A DNA stretch of 16,081 nt from the UHGV virus genome UHGV-0199333; one strand, 5' to 3'. Both the position numbers and the translations under genes were made by a program. The stretch comes from a virus. Positions 1 to 16,051 of this stretch are shown here, piece after piece (position 1 is the first letter of the stretch; every line of letters starts with the position of its first letter). Below the pieces are notes generated by a model. It was not told the origin of the DNA and ran no database searches. It worked only from the letters and a program-made list of their open reading frames with translations.

Positions 1-41
1 AACCTAGCACCAACGCACTGCAATCTCATAGAAACAAATGA

Positions 42-67
42 AATAGTGCCCTGATAAAATAGGGCGC
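42..67 (-). terminator. Possible hairpin terminator downstream of gene S (imperfect inverted repeat agtgccct / agggcgct)
   Basis: Imperfect inverted repeat with 8-nt loop just after the S stop codon; on the minus strand it is followed by a moderately T-rich stretch. In P2 the O-operon ends after S and a separate V-operon promoter follows. Confidence 0.25.
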
Positions 68-78
68 TATTAAATCAA

Positions 79-531
79 CTAATTATAGCTAAGATAATCA
101 AAGATGAGCTCTTCAATAACCTGCTCGTCCTCCAAGGATAATCCGAGTAACTGGCGTTGCGGATATTGCACATCCTGAGCATGAGGGGTTGGTCGGTCTT
201 TAAGTCCATACTGGTGAATTCGCGCAATGCGCTGCACCTTGCCGGTGAATTCCACCACGGCGGCATCAATACGGCCACTTGCTTTCATGTAGCGACTGGT
301 TCGCAATTTCTGGAACATCGACCTTTTGATTCTCCCCGATTTTGCCCTGAGCGGCTGGCGCTTACGAGCCTGATACGGCGTGCCATCAGGTGCTTTTTGC
401 TGTTTGATGCGTTGCTGTTGCGATCTGCGCAGTTGCTTCGCTATCTCAACAGCGAGCTTACGCCGACCCGCCGGTGATATTGCCGCAATCAACCCCGCAA
501 GTTTGTCATCAAAAGGCTTTAATTCATTCAT
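79..531 (-). CDS. S: Phage tail completion / virion morphogenesis protein (P2 gpS-like)
   Basis: 150-aa ORF, same length as P2 gpS; basic Arg/Lys/Gln-rich centre; sits immediately downstream of the R-like ORF as in P2; start overlaps R stop. Confidence 0.75.
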   Translation of the reverse strand: MNELKPFDDKLAGLIAAISPAGRRKLAVEIAKQLRRSQQQRIKQQKAPDGTPYQARKRQPLRAKSGRIKRSMFQKLRTSRYMKASGRIDAAVVEFTGKVQRIARIHQYGLKDRPTPHAQDVQYPQRQLLGLSLEDEQVIEELIFDYLSYN

Positions 532-991
532 CCCATTTGCTCACCAGTTCGCCATTGATATACAGCTCAGTCGGACGTGTCACCGGTTCTGGCAAAGGTG
601 GCTCAGGCGCATAGCTGACGTGTAGCGCGCCGTTTTCATCCCTGACGAGGGTGCGCTCGGTGAGCTGCAGGCTGATACTGATATCCACATTATCCCTGTC
701 GTTTAAATCCATCTGGAATCGATAGCCCTTTTTACGCCCCTCATCCAGCGTGCAGATATCCGGCTGGTTCTCCCGCAACCACGCCGCCACCGGCACGAAA
801 ATCAGGTCAGGGTCGCCGACAAAATCGCAGACGATCACATTCAGGGTGTAAATCTTTTCGTGCGACAGCGAGGCCGCAAGACGTGCATCGATATTCCCCT
901 CATCGGCAAAGATACGCATCATTTCGGGATTGTTTTTTAACTGCGGTACGGCGTCAGTGAGCGCCTGGCGCAGGCTTTTCATTTTCTGCAT
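524..991 (-). CDS. R: Phage tail completion protein (P2 gpR-like)
   Basis: 155-aa ORF, same length as P2 gpR; follows the lysis cassette in P2 order; overlaps S by 8 nt. Confidence 0.75.
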   Translation of the reverse strand: MQKMKSLRQALTDAVPQLKNNPEMMRIFADEGNIDARLAASLSHEKIYTLNVIVCDFVGDPDLIFVPVAAWLRENQPDICTLDEGRKKGYRFQMDLNDRDNVDISISLQLTERTLVRDENGALHVSYAPEPPLPEPVTRPTELYINGELVSKWDE

Positions 992-5764: not shown

Positions 5765-5930
5765 TGTTCAGGTGTCCTGATGTTGGGTTTTCGGTTCGGG
5801 GGTAGTTTCCCGACTCCGCCCCGCATCAGCCACCGCTTGCGGAAGTGCAACCCCTGACACAACAGGGGGTTAGCGATAATGCCCGGCTATTTCCTTAGCC
5901 TTGCCCCGTATTCACCAGTACGAGGCAACC
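5765..5930. promoter_or_regulatory. Divergent late-promoter region between scaffold (O) and large terminase (P) operons
   Basis: 166-bp intergenic spacer between divergently transcribed late operons, equivalent to the P2 P_O/P_P late promoters (Ogr-activated in P2); contains a short palindrome cccctg-acacaa-cagggg at 5851-5868. No exact TGT-N12-ACA activator dyad found by eye. Confidence 0.4.
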
Positions 5931-7700
5931 ATGACCATTTCGACTGACCTCTCCCTTTTGCATGACCCGCGACGACAGGCGCGTCTGTTGTTCTGGCAGG
6001 GATTTTCCGTGCCACAAATCGCCAACACGCTGCAGGTCAAGCGCCCGACCGTGCAGAGCTGGAAACAGCGCGACGGGTGGGAGGAAACCGCGCCGCTTAA
6101 CCGCGTGGAAACGACGCTCGAGGCACGCCTGATCCAGCTTTATGCAAAGCCTGACCTGACGCCGCATGACTTCAAGGTCGCTGATTTCCTGTCACGCCAG
6201 ATGGAGCGATTCGCGCGCATCAACCGCTACGGCCAGACCGGAAACGAGGTGGATTTAAACCCCAACATTGCCAGCCGCAACAAGGGCGATCGCCGTAAGC
6301 CAAAACGTAATTTTTTCAGCGATGAGGCTATCGAAAAGCTGGAAGAGATTTTCTTCGATCAGTCCTTTGAGTATCAGCTCAACTGGCACAAGGCCGGTAT
6401 CGCGCACCGTATTCGCCACATCCTCAAATCACGCCAGATTGGCGCGACGTTCTACTTTGCGCGTGAGTCCCTCCTGCGTGCGCTTAAGACCGGGCAAAAC
6501 CAGATATTTTTATCCGCCAGTAAGACGCAGGCTTACGTGTTCCGAAAGTACATCATCGCCTTTGCGCGCATGGTCGACGTCGACCTGTCAGGCGACCCGA
6601 TTGTTATCGGCAACAACGGTGCAGAGCTGATTTTCCTCGGGACAAACTCCAACACCGCGCAGAGCCATAACGGCGACCTGTATGTCGATGAAATCTTCTG
6701 GATCCCCAACTTTCAGCGGCTGCGTAAAGTGGCCTCGGGGATGGCGTCACAATCCCACCTGCGCACCACCTATTTTTCAACCCCTTCGACGCTGGCGCAC
6801 GGCGCGTATCCGTTCTGGTCAGGTGAGCTGTTCAACAGGGGACGCAGCAGCGCGAGTGAGCGTGTCGACATTGACATCAGTCATAAGGCGCTCGCCGGTG
6901 GCGTGCTGTGCCCGGACGGGCAGTGGCGGCAGATCGTCACCATTGAGGATGCCCTCGCCGGTGGCTGCACCCTGTTTAATCTGGATCAACTGAAACAGGA
7001 AAACAGCGCCGACGATTTCCGCAACCTCTTCATGTGCGAATTCGTCGACGATAAAGCGTCGGTATTCCCGTTCGAGGAGCTGCAGCGCTGCATGGTCGAT
7101 GCGATGGAAGAATGGGAGGACTTTGCGCCGTTCTCTGACCGTCCGTTTAACTGGCGTCCGGTCTGGATTGGCTATGACCCGTCGCACACCGGCGACAGCG
7201 CAGGCTGTGCGGTACTGGCTCCGCCACTGGTTGCCGGTGGCAAGTTCCGCATCCTTGAGCGTCACCAGTGGAAAGGGATGGATTTTGCGACGCAGGCCGA
7301 GGCCATCCGCGAGCTGACAGAGAAATATTGCGTCGAGTATATCGGCATCGATGCGACCGGCATCGGCCAGGGTGTTTACCAGCTCGTGCGCTCCTTCTTC
7401 CCGGCAGCGCGCGCCATTCGCTACACGCCGGAAATGAAAACCGCGATGGTGCTGAAAGCGAAAGACACCATCCGACGCGGGTGTCTGGAATATGACGCCG
7501 GAGCAACCGACATCACGCAGTCATTTATGGCGATCCGTAAAACCATGACCAGCAGCGGGCGCAGTGCCACCTATGAAGCCAGCCGCAGCGAGGAAGCCAG
7601 TCACGCGGATATTGCGTGGGCGACCATGCACGCGCTGTTAAACGAGCCGCTTTCCGCCGGTAGCGGCATGCAATCAACCTCAATTCTGGATATTAACTAA
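5931..7700 (+). CDS. P: Terminase large (ATPase) subunit (P2 gpP-like)
   Basis: The ORF-track start at 5901 is a TTG; the first ATG at 5931 is preceded by GAGG RBS and gives 589 aa (P2 gpP 590 aa); followed directly by the portal gene. Confidence 0.8.
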   Translation: MTISTDLSLLHDPRRQARLLFWQGFSVPQIANTLQVKRPTVQSWKQRDGWEETAPLNRVETTLEARLIQLYAKPDLTPHDFKVADFLSRQMERFARINRYGQTGNEVDLNPNIASRNKGDRRKPKRNFFSDEAIEKLEEIFFDQSFEYQLNWHKAGIAHRIRHILKSRQIGATFYFARESLLRALKTGQNQIFLSASKTQAYVFRKYIIAFARMVDVDLSGDPIVIGNNGAELIFLGTNSNTAQSHNGDLYVDEIFWIPNFQRLRKVASGMASQSHLRTTYFSTPSTLAHGAYPFWSGELFNRGRSSASERVDIDISHKALAGGVLCPDGQWRQIVTIEDALAGGCTLFNLDQLKQENSADDFRNLFMCEFVDDKASVFPFEELQRCMVDAMEEWEDFAPFSDRPFNWRPVWIGYDPSHTGDSAGCAVLAPPLVAGGKFRILERHQWKGMDFATQAEAIRELTEKYCVEYIGIDATGIGQGVYQLVRSFFPAARAIRYTPEMKTAMVLKAKDTIRRGCLEYDAGATDITQSFMAIRKTMTSSGRSATYEASRSEEASHADIAWATMHALLNEPLSAGSGMQSTSILDIN

Positions 7701-7701
7701 G

Positions 7702-8718
7702 ATGAAAAAACGACAGAAGAAACCCGCCACAATGACCGCCAGCGCACCGCAAAAAATGGAGGCGTTCACCTTTGGTGAGCCTTCTCCCGTTCTGGATCGC
7801 CGTGACATCCTCGACTACGTAGAGTGTATCAATAACGGGAAATGGTACGAGCCGCCGGTCAATTTCTCGGGACTGGCAAAAAGCCTGCGCGCCGCCGTCC
7901 ATCACAGCTCGCCGATTTACGTGAAACGTAACATTCTGACGAGCACCTATATCCCGCACCCGTTGCTGTCACGTCAGGATTTCAGTCGCCTTGTGCTTGA
8001 TTATCTGGTTTTTGCCAACGGCTATCTTGAGAAGCGCATGAGCGTCACCGGCCAGCTCTTAAAACTGGAAACCTCACCGGCCAAATACACCCGCCGGGGT
8101 GTCGAAGATGGCGTTTACTGGTACGTGTCGAGCTACACCCAGCCGCACCCGTTCGCCCCCGGTTCTGTGTGTCACCTGCTTGAGCCCGATATCAATCAGG
8201 AGCTGTACGGGATGCCGGAATACCTGAGCGCGCTTAATTCCGCCGGGCTGAATGAATCCGCTACCCTGTTTCGCCGCAAGTATTATCAGAATGGCGCACA
8301 TGCGGGGTACATCATGTATGTCACCGACGCGGCACAGAGCAGCACCGATGTTGAATCTCTCCGTAACGCGATGCGCGACTCAAAAGGACTCGGGAATTTC
8401 AAAAACCTGTTTTTCTACGCGCCCAACGGGAAACCGGATGGCATCAAGATTGTGCCGTTGAGTGAAGTCGCCACGAAGGATGATTTTTTCAATATCAAAA
8501 AGGTGAGCGCCGCCGACCTGCTCGATGCGCACCGCGTGCCGTTTCAGTTGATGGGCGGCAAGCCGGAGAATATTGGTTCAATGGGTGACGTTGAGAAGGT
8601 GGCGCGGGTATTTGTGCGTAACGAACTGACGCCGCTGCAGGAGCGTTTCAAAGAGATTAACGACTGGCTCGGAATAGAGGTGATCCGCTTTAAAGATTAC
8701 AGCCTCGAATCAGAATAA
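7702..8718 (+). CDS. Q: Portal protein (P2 gpQ-like)
   Basis: 338-aa ORF (P2 gpQ 344 aa) starting 1 nt after the P stop; last gene before the cos-like site. Exact start uncertain (in-frame Mets at 7702, 7732, 7756). Confidence 0.8.
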   Translation: MKKRQKKPATMTASAPQKMEAFTFGEPSPVLDRRDILDYVECINNGKWYEPPVNFSGLAKSLRAAVHHSSPIYVKRNILTSTYIPHPLLSRQDFSRLVLDYLVFANGYLEKRMSVTGQLLKLETSPAKYTRRGVEDGVYWYVSSYTQPHPFAPGSVCHLLEPDINQELYGMPEYLSALNSAGLNESATLFRRKYYQNGAHAGYIMYVTDAAQSSTDVESLRNAMRDSKGLGNFKNLFFYAPNGKPDGIKIVPLSEVATKDDFFNIKKVSAADLLDAHRVPFQLMGGKPENIGSMGDVEKVARVFVRNELTPLQERFKEINDWLGIEVIRFKDYSLESE

Positions 8719-8726
8719 CCCCCCTC

Positions 8727-8750
8727 AAAATGCCGCCTCCGGGCGGCATT
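8727..8750. other. GC-rich hairpin just after Q (aatgccgcc-tccg-ggcggcatt)
   Basis: 9-bp perfect inverted repeat with 4-nt loop; T-run follows only on the minus-strand reading, so terminator function and strand are ambiguous. Confidence 0.35.
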
Positions 8751-8884
8751 ACCACTGAGCGCCTCAGACGCACCACACGCCATCTAACCACCCGACAAAC
8801 ATCAGCGCCGACCCGCAAAGCGACAGCGCCACCACGACGCGCTCAGGCGCGTAAAAATAAATGCTGTCACCACGTCTGGCGCGC

Positions 8885-8903
8885 AGTGCTATCCCCGCCT
8901 CGC
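8885..8903 (-). other. cos: cos site (cohesive-end sequence) of the P2 family
   Basis: Minus strand reads GGCGAGGCGGGGATAGCAC, which matches the 19-nt P2 cohesive end as I recall it (GGCGAGGCGGGGAAAGCAC) at 18/19 positions; located right after Q as expected. Confidence 0.55.
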
Positions 8904-8945
8904 CTGCCCGCTTTATGGGGCGGTTTTAATGCAGGTGTACGACAT

Positions 8946-8973
8946 AAGCAAAAGCCCGCCGTTCTTGGCGGGC
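8946..8973 (-). terminator. Rho-independent terminator downstream of the 249-aa cargo gene
   Basis: Minus strand: GCCCGCC-aagaac-GGCGGGC followed by TTTTGCTT, about 95 nt after the stop of the 9067..9816 ORF. Confidence 0.55.
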
Positions 8974-9066
8974 CTTAGTTAAAAAGATCTTAAAACGACC
9001 ATGCAGATTCATGCATCATAGGTGTGCACTACTTGCCATCTGATCTACTGACCAATATTTTTATTT

Positions 9067-9816
9067 TTAGCTAGAAAATCGCTCCCTTATTTTGCTTATA
9101 ATTTGAGCTACAGCACTCGCTTTAGATCCATAAATGTCAGAAAGTAAATATTCAACAACTTCATAAGCTGATCCAATATCATTTGTACTTACAGCATCTG
9201 CATTGTGGCTACCCGCATTGCCAAGCCATCGGATTGCAGTTAATGCTTCTAAATGCTTTTGAAAATCTGAAGGTAGGATCTCCAGACGGGCATTGAGAGT
9301 CAATCGGTAAAGCTCACCCTTTTTATTAGGAAGACGCGCTGGTACACCAAGCTCAGTTAACAAATTTTCGATTGAAGTGCGTAAAGCATTTGCCGCTGCC
9401 GCAGGATTATTAAGATACAGGCTGAATGACTCACACAAGGCCTTCTGAACAGACACGGGACACTCACTCGGAATGTTGAATGGCTTCAAAGCAGGAGCAA
9501 AATATTTAGCTGAAAAAAGGTTGATGTGATCAAGGTCACGTCCATCCCATTCTTGATGAACACCACCAACGCCACTACACGCGACAACCTCCTTACAACG
9601 ACTACTCTCGCAGACTAAGAGACTGGAAAAAACATAAGATATACATTCCGGATCCCAATATTGGTCGTTGCTTGTACGATACTGAACTGACTCTAATGTT
9701 TCGTTATAATGGAAGGTACCGCTCTTGATCTTAAGCGTTGCATTTCCGCATGATGGGCAAGCCCAAGAGGGACATTCATGCTCGGTAAACATTGTGGTTA
9801 GCTTTGCTGCAGGCAT
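9067..9816 (-). CDS. Cargo protein of unknown function: Cys-rich N-terminus (possible zinc ribbon) and DUF4145-like C-terminal region; candidate defence or accessory protein
   Basis: 249-aa ORF with AAGGA RBS 4 nt before the ATG; N-terminal CPSWACPSCG plus further Cys; C-terminal ...ALRTSIENLL...IRWLGNAGSHNADAVS...EVVEYLLSDIY fits my recollection of the DUF4145 pattern (conserved R..GN..H). Markedly AT-rich versus the flanking phage core; at the cos-proximal variable locus. Confidence 0.5.
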   Translation of the reverse strand: MPAAKLTTMFTEHECPSWACPSCGNATLKIKSGTFHYNETLESVQYRTSNDQYWDPECISYVFSSLLVCESSRCKEVVACSGVGGVHQEWDGRDLDHINLFSAKYFAPALKPFNIPSECPVSVQKALCESFSLYLNNPAAAANALRTSIENLLTELGVPARLPNKKGELYRLTLNARLEILPSDFQKHLEALTAIRWLGNAGSHNADAVSTNDIGSAYEVVEYLLSDIYGSKASAVAQIISKIRERFSS

Positions 9817-9976
9817 ATTAATCCTTGGGTGAAATTATTCATAATTCATTAAAAACAATATAAATACACCGGAGAAAGACTAATTAACATCAAAAAATAT
9901 GCGTCAGCATCTAATATCATGTTACCCATAGGATAAAAAACATCTCGCCTATGCAGCTGTAACTACACACCATTAA

Positions 9977-10031
9977 CAACAGATTGGACACTTCGTGTGA
10001 GCTCACACTTAAAAGCATCAACAATCTGTTG
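9977..10031. promoter_or_regulatory. Nested inverted repeats in the intergenic region between the two cargo genes
   Basis: 10-bp arms caacagattg (9977-9986) and caatctgttg (10022-10031) flank a perfect 14-bp palindrome gtgtgagctcacac (9995-10008). Confidence 0.4.
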
Positions 10032-10077
10032 CCCAAACTTTTGCTCTTTATCCAATGTGATATTGATTTTTATAAGG

Positions 10078-10260
10078 CTATTCAGCCTTATAAAAAATAT
10101 CTTCTTCGGCTTCGTTATTTTCACTGTTTGCTAGGTCAGCAATGAGAGTGAGCGCAAGCTTTAAGTCTGCTGGCTTGCAGTTTGCAATCAGAGATATCTC
10201 GGCAATGAATTGCACACAAGCCCATTTTTGCTGCGTTCGGCTGAAATGTTCCCCAACCAT
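10078..10260 (-). CDS. Small acidic protein of unknown function, first gene of the LexA-box-preceded cargo cassette
   Basis: 60-aa ORF with strong RBS (minus-strand GGAGGG 5 nt before the ATG); acidic C-terminus NSENNEAEEDIFYKAE; AT-rich; a LexA box lies about 20-40 nt upstream. Confidence 0.5.
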   Translation of the reverse strand: MVGEHFSRTQQKWACVQFIAEISLIANCKPADLKLALTLIADLANSENNEAEEDIFYKAE

Positions 10261-10280
10261 GAAATCCCTCCCAATATGAT

Positions 10281-10300
10281 AACTGTATATTTATACAGTA
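10281..10300. promoter_or_regulatory. LexA (SOS) box
   Basis: aaCTGTatatttatACAGta: CTGT-N8-ACAG with AT-rich spacer, one spacer mismatch from the E. coli consensus taCTGTatatatatACAGta; minus-strand -35-like TTGCCA lies just upstream, so the box overlaps the likely -10 region. Confidence 0.6.
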
Positions 10301-10374
10301 TCACGTATTGGCAAATGATGGGAAGAGAAAAAATGAATCACACAGGTGTTGTATGTGCATGATATGGATGTGAA

Positions 10375-12597
10375 TTAGCCACTTTTTAGCGTTGATGCTT
10401 CTGCCAACGCTGCAACACGATTGAGGATTTCCCTAGCCTTAGCTTGGTTCGATGGAACAGTGGAAAATATCTCCCCTTTAGATGTTCCCCTAAGCCATTT
10501 TCCGCCAAAACAGCTTTTACCACCGGCCATAAGATGCAGGGCTTCACCCCGGCTGATGTTGATGCCGGTTATCAGATGGATTTCGTCGATAGTCTTCTCT
10601 ATCGCAGCGTTTTGCTCATCCGTGCCGTGGATAAATTTCTCCCTTTTTGGTGGCTTTGGCTTCTTGAGTTGGTTCGTCAGCTCTCGCCTTTCGCGCCGAC
10701 TCAGGGGTTTTGATAAATCGAGTACCGGTGGATCGCTTTCGCTTCCCGTACAGTTATTGACAGAACTCCAAGGGACGGTGAAACCGTCCTTAACGTCAAC
10801 GGCCAAATCAACGGCACGCTTCGGAACAATTTTCCATTGCGTGAGCCGGGTTAAAATCGGAGTGCCAACACCAACGGTGGAGTCGTACACACCACGAATG
10901 CAGACAGTTTCCTCACCATACTGGTTAAACTCGGTGCGTGGTTCATAAAGCGTGCGCACCTGCAAATCATCGCGACGGACAAACGGACCACCCTGCGCAT
11001 TAACATAGCCAGCCCAATCACCGGCGTCGGCGGCATCATGGACAGCGGCAAACTCAACACTCAGACCGTGCGCGGTCTCGGTATCTGCAAGGCGACGCAA
11101 TTCACGATATACAGTCACCGGTGCACCGCCGATAAACTGAAACTGACGAATATGCCAGCGTGCCGCCCATGCTGATACGGCGGGGGCGGTCTCTTTCAAC
11201 AGTTCACCATTTTCGTCATCGGTTTCGTCATCAAGAGCGTAGCCGTCGATATTTTTCGAGATGTATTTCGCGACGTAGCCGGTGGCGCTGCCTTTTTCCG
11301 GGTCAATGGCTTCTGCGTGGAAACGTGCTTTTTTGGCTTTATCGCTTTTGAGTTCGTGAACATCTTCCAGCCATGCGTAGTCCCGAATAATGCCTCGAAC
11401 GGTATCGACATCCTCTGGGAGCATGAACATCAGCATATGCCAGTGAGGGCATCCGTCATGGTGAGGCTCTGCCACGCGGATCCCGAAAATACGAATGTCT
11501 TCACGGTGGAGTTTTGCGCGGATGCGAGCCCACAGGCTTGTAAGGTAGCTTTGCGTGTCTGATGGGTTGGCTCCGTTCCATTTGGTGTTACGGTAGCCTG
11601 CCTTTGTCGTGGCGTGATATTTAGACGGCGCAGTCAGGGTGTAAAACTCACCAACATAACCGAGCTCATTGCAGATATTTTCAAACCCACGAATGCGGGT
11701 CATAAGCTCACAGCGCCGAATCGCAGGGTTAGCGACTGAGCCATCGTATTTTTCAATCAGGCTGATACGGTTGCCGTCTTCGTCTTCGAGCTCCATACCT
11801 TTGAGAAATTCGCGCGTATGGCGCTTTTGTTCGCGCCAGTCTGTCACGCAGTTTTTACTTGCGTAGACATGTTTTTTCTTACTGACATTTCCGATTGTGA
11901 TTTGCAGGTGTTCGCGCCACGCAGCCGCAACGCGACGCAGACGGCCACGCCACCATTTTTCTGAAAACATACGGGCAATTGCTGGAGCGACTTTATCCTG
12001 ATCCCAATATTTATCCCGCGACTTTTCCCACTCTGGTGGCATTATCCTGAATTGCTGAGTGATGAAACCAGCATGCATATACCAGGCATTTAATGTCTCC
12101 AGTTCACACATGTCAGAATCGTCAATGTTGACTAACTCTGCACGGATAAAATCGGCGATATCAGCAGCCAGCAGGTCGATGTCGGCGCGCGTCATATCCG
12201 GGAGTCGGTTATACCTTGCGACCATATTGACTATACGTGACGCCAGATATTGCATAAGCTGGGTATCAAAATGACCACCTAAAACAGCGGCTGATACGTT
12301 GCTCTTAATACCTGTGCACTCGTATTTTTTTGCGACCAGTTCAAGACGCGGCAATGCCTTTTTGCAAAAGCTTATTAAAAAAGCATTGGCTCGTTGACTG
12401 CCCTGATTTTGCTCCAGTACCGCAGCGGTGCGATAAACATCAAAACGCACACATTCGGGCTGGAGTGAAAGCACTTTCCTTGCATGCAGCAAAGCCGCGA
12501 ACATACGGTCGCGGCGGTACTGTTGGTCGTAGGTAAGATATGGACTGGTTATTGCCGACCGTGGAGCATTCCACGGAAACGCGAATTGAACAGCCAA
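10375..12597 (-). CDS. A: Replication initiation protein, rolling-circle endonuclease (P2 gpA-like)
   Basis: 740-aa ORF (P2 gpA 761 aa) at the end of the early operon; large size and position are diagnostic in the P2 layout. Confidence 0.8.
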   Translation of the reverse strand: MAVQFAFPWNAPRSAITSPYLTYDQQYRRDRMFAALLHARKVLSLQPECVRFDVYRTAAVLEQNQGSQRANAFLISFCKKALPRLELVAKKYECTGIKSNVSAAVLGGHFDTQLMQYLASRIVNMVARYNRLPDMTRADIDLLAADIADFIRAELVNIDDSDMCELETLNAWYMHAGFITQQFRIMPPEWEKSRDKYWDQDKVAPAIARMFSEKWWRGRLRRVAAAWREHLQITIGNVSKKKHVYASKNCVTDWREQKRHTREFLKGMELEDEDGNRISLIEKYDGSVANPAIRRCELMTRIRGFENICNELGYVGEFYTLTAPSKYHATTKAGYRNTKWNGANPSDTQSYLTSLWARIRAKLHREDIRIFGIRVAEPHHDGCPHWHMLMFMLPEDVDTVRGIIRDYAWLEDVHELKSDKAKKARFHAEAIDPEKGSATGYVAKYISKNIDGYALDDETDDENGELLKETAPAVSAWAARWHIRQFQFIGGAPVTVYRELRRLADTETAHGLSVEFAAVHDAADAGDWAGYVNAQGGPFVRRDDLQVRTLYEPRTEFNQYGEETVCIRGVYDSTVGVGTPILTRLTQWKIVPKRAVDLAVDVKDGFTVPWSSVNNCTGSESDPPVLDLSKPLSRRERRELTNQLKKPKPPKREKFIHGTDEQNAAIEKTIDEIHLITGINISRGEALHLMAGGKSCFGGKWLRGTSKGEIFSTVPSNQAKAREILNRVAALAEASTLKSG

Positions 12598-15016: not shown

Positions 15017-16051
15017 ATGAGTGTTAAAAAACTGATATCGGGTGAATGGCTTTGTGATTTCCGCGTCGACGGGGCTGAAAGTCGCCGCGTGCGTAAGAAG
15101 TTTTCAACCAAAGGTGAAGCCGTTGCCTTCGAGCAGTATTACCGAGAAGAGGCACAAAATAAGCCGTGGATGGGTGAGAAGGAAGACCGTCGACGTTTGA
15201 GTGAACTGATTGAGCTGTGGCATAACCTCCATGGCCAGTCGCTCGCTGCCAGCAAATCACGATTGGCCAAACTGCACATTGTTTGCCGGGGTCTTGGCGA
15301 CCCAATCGCTACCCAGCTTACCGCCAAAGATTTCGGCCATTATCGGGATAAACGCCTCAAGGGTGAAATCGACAATGGCTATCACGCAAATCCCGAAAAG
15401 TGGATTGCGAAACCTGTGACTGTGAACCGGGAACAACAGTACCTCGAAGCTGTTTTCAATGAGCTGAAGCGCTTGGGTGAGTGGAGTCTGCCAAATCCTC
15501 TCGAAGGTGTGCGAGTTTTCAAAGAAGCCGAAAAAGAAATGTCCTGGCTTACCCAGCCTCAAATTCGCGAAGTGCTCAACGCCTGTGAGTCATACGGGAA
15601 AATTTACTTAACCCGTATCGTCAAAGTGTGCTTAGCGACTGGTGCTCGATGGAGCGAGGCCGAGCGTCTTACTCGTTCACAGCTGTCACCCCACAAGTTG
15701 ACTTTCACTAAAACGAAGGGAAAGAAGAATCGTACAGTACCGATCCCTCGGTGGCTATATGACGAGTTGGCTCCTTTGCAGGGAAAAATGTTCCACCCCT
15801 GCTATCAGGAGTTCAAGAAAATGCTGGCTCTGACCGATATACAGTTGGCCGAGGGACAGAAGACGCACGTACTTCGACATACCTTTGCGAGTCATTTTAT
15901 GATGAATGGGGGAAATATTTTGGTGCTTCAACGTATCCTTGGACACTCAAATATCAGGGAAACTATGAGATATGCTCATTTTGCTCCCGACCACCTAGAG
16001 GAAGCAGCGTTATTAAATCCTATCTCAAATTTTTATGAGGCTTCACTATGA
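15017..16051 (+). CDS. int: Tyrosine integrase (P2 Int-like)
   Basis: 344-aa ORF downstream of the repressor; C-terminal HxxR (HVLRHTFASH) and catalytic-Tyr region (LGHSNIRETMRYAHF) typical of tyrosine recombinases. Confidence 0.85.
   Translation: MSVKKLISGEWLCDFRVDGAESRRVRKKFSTKGEAVAFEQYYREEAQNKPWMGEKEDRRRLSELIELWHNLHGQSLAASKSRLAKLHIVCRGLGDPIATQLTAKDFGHYRDKRLKGEIDNGYHANPEKWIAKPVTVNREQQYLEAVFNELKRLGEWSLPNPLEGVRVFKEAEKEMSWLTQPQIREVLNACESYGKIYLTRIVKVCLATGARWSEAERLTRSQLSPHKLTFTKTKGKKNRTVPIPRWLYDELAPLQGKMFHPCYQEFKKMLALTDIQLAEGQKTHVLRHTFASHFMMNGGNILVLQRILGHSNIRETMRYAHFAPDHLEEAALLNPISNFYEASL

Follow-up and report, generated by a model that had tools for sequence, protein, structure and literature searches.

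Organization of the window and its first 78 bases

The window (the whole stretch of DNA analysed here, 16,081 nucleotides of the virus genome UHGV-0199333) is an E. coli P2-like prophage reversed relative to the P2 map, judging from its ORF layout, the Pfam labels on identical products and comparison with the P2 record; the public names of identical proteins point to Escherichia coli as host. On this layout, the late O operon ends with S. The principal genes are as follows.

79..531, minus strand: S, tail completion and virion morphogenesis (ORF list; PF05069, Phage_tail_S, on an identical product)
524..991, minus strand: R
beyond R, minus strand: lysis and head genes
5901..7700, plus strand: terminase P
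7702..8718, plus strand: portal Q
10375..12597, minus strand: replication gene
15017..16051, plus strand: integrase

The S stop codon occupies 79..81 on the minus strand and, with S placed at 79..531 in a P2-like gene order, positions 1..78 are therefore the first 78 bases downstream of S. Their GC content is 38.5%; the whole window has 52.5% and S has 50.3%. An earlier note had described them as a non-coding, AT-rich spacer with an imperfect hairpin, and this description proved accurate: beside the low GC content, the stretch holds a hairpin with a core at 48..65 within an extended stem at 42..71, and it makes up 78 of the 114 spacer bases between two converging genes. The features of the spacer and of the DNA next to it are listed below.

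1..78, no strand: non-coding spacer at the S-proximal edge of an island; S (minus strand) and a 543-aa cargo gene (plus strand) converge on 114 bases, of which these are the first 78
42..71, minus strand: hairpin, core 48..52 paired with 61..65, extended stem 42..53 paired with 60..71 (pattern scan and folding)
31..47, minus strand: T-rich tail, ACTATTTCATTTGTTTC in S sense (reading of the sequence; it passes the scan's threshold of 5 or more T in 8 bases)
1..29, minus strand: 12-codon ORF, MRLQCVGARLSS, whose stop codon lies just past the edge in contig L001 and the other extending contigs
beyond position 1: 543-aa cargo gene, 6568..8199 of contigs L001 and L002, plus strand in window orientation, ending 37 bases beyond position 1 (extending contigs)

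The minus-strand ATG at 29..27 does open a frame beginning MRLQCVGAR, as the earlier note reported, and the note was also right that this frame is unlike gpV: it stops after 12 codons, and V lies 2.1 kb further on. The same ATG with an open frame, 16 codons long, is found in L074, a second E. coli P2-like phage, which could be taken as a sign of a genuine small protein. Retention of an open frame is, however, expected anyway from the approximately 76% nucleotide identity of the two spacers in the absence of indels, and the two peptides differ in length and at many positions. Reading the sequence upstream of the ATG revealed no Shine-Dalgarno-like sequence, and the frame sits inside the spacer, just downstream of a terminator-like hairpin. 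We rejected the frame as a gene and regard it as a chance ORF ending just beyond the window edge; that it encodes a protein is extremely improbable.

An AT-rich island lies between S and V

An exact look-up of the gpS protein retrieved 17 public contigs. Over 6,531 bases the window has 0 mismatches to the E. coli contigs L002 and L003 and 6 to L001, and the five contigs reaching beyond position 1 all share the same continuation. Beyond the edge lie 36 further spacer bases (114 in total) and then the end, marked by its stop codon, of a 543-aa ORF on the strand opposite to S. Extending the sequence leftward, the check that had been suggested for the junction, thus gives a reverse-strand 543-aa ORF as the next gene in the public contigs. 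This gene is followed by approximately 430 non-coding bases, composed of about 360 bp of AT-rich DNA and a 68-bp pV spacer, and then by V, which begins at 8628 of L001 with the N-terminus MNNLTSLQEIARAIRNLIRTGIV. No gpV-like gene stands directly past the edge, V starting only 2,174 bases after the S stop. The insertion that the earlier note suspected at the S/V junction is real, and consists of an AT-rich island of about 2.1 kb.

A set of 65 loci encoding gpS relatives was assembled from other Enterobacterales; 60 of them include V as well as S, and in these the S-to-V interval was measured. Eighteen of these junctions are empty, with 53–76 bp of 55–66% GC, and the other 42 (70%) are occupied by 0.8–4.6 kb of cargo at 31–49% GC, whose ORFs may lie on either strand. 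The 71 cargo ORFs make up 50 protein clusters, and the family of P2 orf30 is present in five loci. In the closest empty relatives the pV element (TTGTTGT...CACAAAAC...ATTGCCGC...GGCGGCATCCTTTCCCC, then the V start codon) comes 0–2 bases after the S stop; across the 18 empty junctions it lies at or within a few bases of that stop, and distant relatives carry diverged versions. The same 68 bases stand intact right before V here, and their first part aligns with the annotated pV activator-binding site of P2. Because the empty-junction sequence is intact before V, and the pV element adjoins the S stop in empty relatives, both boundaries of the island are fixed. It measures approximately 2,106 bp from the S stop to the pV element and has a GC content of 31–37%, against 53–61% for the backbone. 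The locus thus shows what characterizes an S/V slot of the orf30 type: an insert between the S stop and the pV site with intact flanks, foreign composition, and presence/absence polymorphism with varied cargo across relatives.

The default expectation behind the earlier note was a different one, namely that the bases after S are the pV late-promoter region, with V just past the edge. The 18 related prophages in which the short interval after S holds the pV element and is followed by V agree with it. The P2 late promoters carry a TGT-N12-ACA dyad, and a near match, TGT-N12-GCA, occurs at 36..19 on the minus strand. This near match is one base off the dyad; it is not conserved in the L074 spacer and so is probably a chance occurrence. 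The exact dyad is absent from 1..78, and such matches show no enrichment in the window. On inspection, 1..78 does not resemble the 68-bp spacer of empty junctions. That spacer, with its activator-aligned element at approximately 8560–8580 of L001, is intact 2.1 kb from the window edge, beside V, and the next gene in all extending contigs is the reverse-strand gene rather than V. We rejected the identification of 1..78 with the pV promoter, the element being intact elsewhere, next to V, and give that reading practically no credence. Taken as a structural statement alone, we are nearly certain that 1..78 is the edge of an island in a convergent spacer and is not the V promoter.

A GC-rich dyad, TTGCCGC...GGCGGCA followed by TCCTTTCCCC, was also observed at 8592..8620 of L001, downstream of the pV activator element and ahead of the V start codon. 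Most of the sampled relatives, including most empty junctions, have it in some variant; P2 lacks it, and in one relative (L025) the pattern scan scored it as terminator-like.

In the P2 record itself (NC_001895, 9367–10308), S is followed by a "putative rho-independent terminator for O operon", then by Orf30, the pV activator site and finally V. Orf30 is a nonessential protein of 261 aa encoded on the opposite strand. The two phages share the S stop, a short spacer with a hairpin, an opposite-strand gene, AT-rich DNA (35% GC in both), the pV site and V; they differ in that the sequences are unrelated and that the island measures 2.1 kb here and 0.9 kb in P2. The closest E. coli relative (91% DNA identity in S) carries another reverse-strand gene here (annotated length 237 aa) and a hairpin of its own after S. 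The earlier note had also suspected a rearranged junction that departs from P2. This did not hold up: since P2 has the reverse-strand orf30 and an annotated terminator between S and pV, the junction is a normal occupied cargo slot. By gene order, the arrangement is ordinary and well precedented by the orf30 locus of P2.

A BLAST search with window 1..600 as query, run against phages and complete E. coli genomes, gave similarity ending at approximately 140 and no match to 1..139, and a sensitive search of 1..160 against phages returned no match. Similarity to the closest E. coli relatives is thus lost within the 3' end of S (about 79..140, the last ~20 codons), before the stop codon, and the C-terminal tails of S vary widely among relatives. 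From this loss of similarity and these variable tails, the recombination joint of the cargo module may lie within S.

The spacer carries a hairpin with a T-rich tail in S sense, its core kept in a second phage

A pattern scan marked 65..48 of the minus strand as terminator-like: the arms GCCCT and AGGGC are separated by 8 nt and followed by ACTATTTCAT. The core stem begins 14 bases past the S stop and has four G-C pairs. On the plus strand, which is the sense of the cargo gene, the extended stem has 12 pairs, two of them G.U; the same two positions are A.C mismatches on the minus strand, the sense of S. The folding energy is correspondingly −12.7 kcal/mol in S sense and −17.3 kcal/mol in cargo sense. 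None of the 319 40-nt windows of the neighbouring cargo gene reached the energy of the hairpin on either strand. The 78 bases fold with a z-score of −2.2 (7 of 200 shuffles were equally good) and the full 114-nt spacer with a z-score of −3.85 (1 of 200). The minimum-energy fold of the 78 nt in S sense is a different, longer pairing than the hairpin. A T tract follows the stem in S sense only, and it is interrupted; in cargo sense, the stem is followed by ATTAAATCAA, which has no comparable T run and fails the scan's threshold for T residues.

The core of the hairpin recurs in L074. In its homologous spacer, the GC core and the T-rich tail in S sense are both kept. The sole change in the stem core is a T-to-C substitution (AGTGCCCT to AGCGCCCT) that turns a wobble or mismatch position into a G-C pair. 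The outer pairs of L074 reverse the strand preference, giving a long G.U-containing stem in S sense. Covariation supports the stem thinly, because the window and L074 provide just two sequence variants of the hairpin.

A hairpin standing about 14 bases from the left boundary of an island could also be a REP-like mobile repeat or an attC-like recombination site through which the island was inserted. It occurs a single time in the window, even when 3 mismatches are tolerated (a repeat search with a 6-base seed skips it, its exact arm being 5 bases long). An Rfam search of the island gave no family match, and a tRNA scan was empty as well. Reading L001 by eye, we noticed no inverted or direct copy at the right boundary, and the sequences after S are unrelated in other islands of the same slot. 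We consider such an origin very improbable.

A candidate terminator between head-on transcription units

The hairpin combines a GC-rich stem-loop, a U-rich tract 3' of the stem in S sense, and a location just after the last gene of the operon, as intrinsic terminators do. Several features argue against a terminator: in S sense the stem is modest, with a 5-bp GC-rich core, an A.C mismatch in the extension and an energy of −12.7 kcal/mol, and the T tract is interrupted. It is also weaker than the hairpin of P2, a near-perfect 18-bp palindrome of −29 kcal/mol.

A strict rule requiring a hairpin plus a T run was passed by only 2 of 41 occupied junctions and failed by the annotated terminator of P2. 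Since this rule is too stringent, junctions were compared by local folding energies, taking for each of the 41 occupied junctions the most stable local hairpin within 150 nt downstream of S. Hairpins were stronger where S and the first cargo gene converge (median −14.2 versus −8.0 kcal/mol; Mann-Whitney p = 0.004). This difference fits a need to separate head-on transcription units.

Alternatively, the hairpin could serve mainly the cargo gene, as a 3' stabilizer or terminator brought in by the module, with termination of the O operon incidental or absent. The greater strength of the stem in cargo sense (12 pairs, −17.3 versus −12.7 kcal/mol) is in its favour, and the spacer and hairpin travel with a 92%-identical cargo gene in the second P2-like phage. 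A Raoultella homologue of the cargo gene lies outside a phage context; its 3' flank is not homologous to the spacer but again includes a GC-rich hairpin, CGCTCC...GGAGCG. Yet no T tract follows in cargo sense, whereas S sense has one in both phages. The asymmetry in stem strength is moreover reversed in L074, so that selection on both strands fits better than selection on the cargo strand alone. On balance we find a function confined mainly to the cargo gene unlikely. Because the stem is stronger in cargo sense but has no T tract there, the hairpin may act mainly in either direction.

From the T-rich run after the stem, the core kept in L074 and the stronger hairpins at convergent junctions, we infer that the hairpin terminates transcription of the O operon and that it also caps the cargo transcript. 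The model that we favour is the following. A horizontally acquired, AT-rich island is inserted between the S stop codon and the pV activator-binding site. In S sense, the hairpin and its T-rich tail would act as the intrinsic terminator of the O operon, and termination there would keep late transcription from entering the cargo gene in antisense. The cargo transcript forms this stem too, at its 3' end, where the stem would stabilize the RNA or end it before antisense entry into S. Beyond the island, V keeps an intact late promoter of its own. We consider this explanation as a whole, island edge and O-operon terminator together, to be probable.

A second terminator-like hairpin, ACCAGACTTTGTCTGGT followed by ATCTATGTTT, was found on the S-sense strand at 8220..8236 of L002, about 20 bases upstream of the cargo start codon; on the other strand, it falls in the 5' leader of the cargo gene.

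The cargo gene belongs to a large unnamed family

The 543-aa protein had no significant match in Pfam, PADLOC, NCBIfam, PHROGs or a profile search of PDB sequences, and 50 of its relatives had no Pfam match either. The family numbers more than 2,000 proteins for which no Pfam domain is recorded, and no functional name appears among the sampled members. Membership of the Orf30 family (phrog_2407) was excluded, the best PHROG E-value being 0.067 for the 543-aa protein and 2.9e-148 for P2 Orf30.

In 50 members (43–76% identical to the first sequence), the best-conserved C-terminal block is an R-x5-H motif, R479-S-T-G-V-A-H485, in which H485 is invariant and R479 at least 90% conserved. The motif has the R-x4-6-H spacing of HEPN domains; curated HEPN sequence models did not match the protein. 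The first 340 residues are rich in beta structure. In a Foldseek search of the PDB, the sole match was a weak one, of the N-terminal region to part of the phage sensor SeAvs3, and no convincing PD-(D/E)xK nuclease signature was seen by eye among the conserved N-terminal residues. DARNA was rejected as a relative, being all-helical with an N-terminal HEPN domain.

ApeA is a predominantly helical single-protein HEPN anti-phage system (bioRxiv 10.64898/2026.01.26.701840). Like it, the cargo product is one protein in the range of ~540–580 aa; its N-terminal region has no homologues by sequence, and a conserved R...H motif lies in a helical domain at the C-terminus. Unlike ApeA, it has no PADLOC or Pfam match, and its N-terminal 340 residues are beta-rich rather than predominantly helical. 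The label "ApeA N-terminal domain-containing" is carried by just one distant member of the family. We rejected membership in ApeA on the lack of a model match and an architecture that is not mostly helical.

The cargo gene may have moved between phages. In L074, a 92%-identical gene occupies the same slot in the same orientation. Between L002 (6568..8199) and L074 (4001..5632) the gene is 91–97% identical over most of its length, against 76–85% for the flanking R and S genes and the spacer, which suggests a recent exchange of cargo between two diverged E. coli P2-like phages. Other family members were found in the following contexts: the S/V slot of a Burkholderia pseudomallei P2-like prophage, in forward orientation (L079, 8001..9614); beside the primase of a Kosakonia cowanii P4-like satellite (L082, 8001..9692) that also has PycTM and AGS_C (Pycsar-type) genes; next to SIR2 and DUF87/HerA genes in Raoultella; next to integrases and a gene with a RelA/SpoT domain in Pseudomonas; and between transposases in Xanthomonas. 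Such contexts point to a role of the family in defence.

We tentatively propose that the cargo is an undescribed single-protein abortive-infection defence, in which a beta-rich, SeAvs3-like N-terminal region would be joined to a C-terminal HEPN-like RNase, with the hairpin at 42..71 acting as an insulator. We rate this proposal as a serious candidate, though slightly more likely to fail than to hold.

The S/V slot and the known hotspots of P2-like phages

The Q-A hotspot is analysed by Rousset et al. 2022 (PMC9122126). The iLund4u preprint (bioRxiv 10.1101/2024.10.15.618418) describes old/tin, Z/fun and a third hotspot near the CI regulator, and a 2026 NAR paper (PMC13586616) adds minor hotspots, one of them "downstream of GpL" within the tail genes. 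The latter also cites Nilsson and Haggard-Ljungquist 2007 for known P2 horizontal-transfer sites, a source that may cover the S/V slot. Like the P2 hotspots Q-A (old/tin) and Z/fun, the S/V slot is a small locus between conserved genes, with high turnover, AT-rich cargo and empty versions in some relatives. Unlike them, it was not found named as a hotspot in text searches of PMC9122126, PMC13586616 and bioRxiv 10.1101/2024.10.15.618418. As a site of nonessential DNA, the slot has long been known, as the orf30 annotation of P2 attests.

The Q-A (old/tin) hotspot is occupied in the window as well, by AT-rich DNA of 38–46% GC at 8719..10374. It encodes a 249-aa DUF4145 protein (9067..9816, minus strand; Pfam E = 1.4e-11) with a weak PADLOC match to PD-T7-4 (E = 0.002), and small ORFs without matches.

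Taken alone, positions 1..78 matter little: they form a normal spacer between convergent genes at a documented P2 slot. They do have a use in the annotation of P2-like prophages, where a short AT-rich stretch right after S marks an occupied slot, and a GC-rich junction of about 68 bp beginning with the pV element an empty one. Should the proposal for the cargo gene be true, the hairpin at 42..71 would let a lysogen-expressed cargo gene sit head-on against the late operon. The unnamed cargo gene, outside the window, is the sole part with discovery potential. With 70% of junctions occupied, 50 protein clusters among the cargo and a cargo family that looks defence-like, the S/V slot of P2-like phages would be a cheap place to seek new anti-phage genes.
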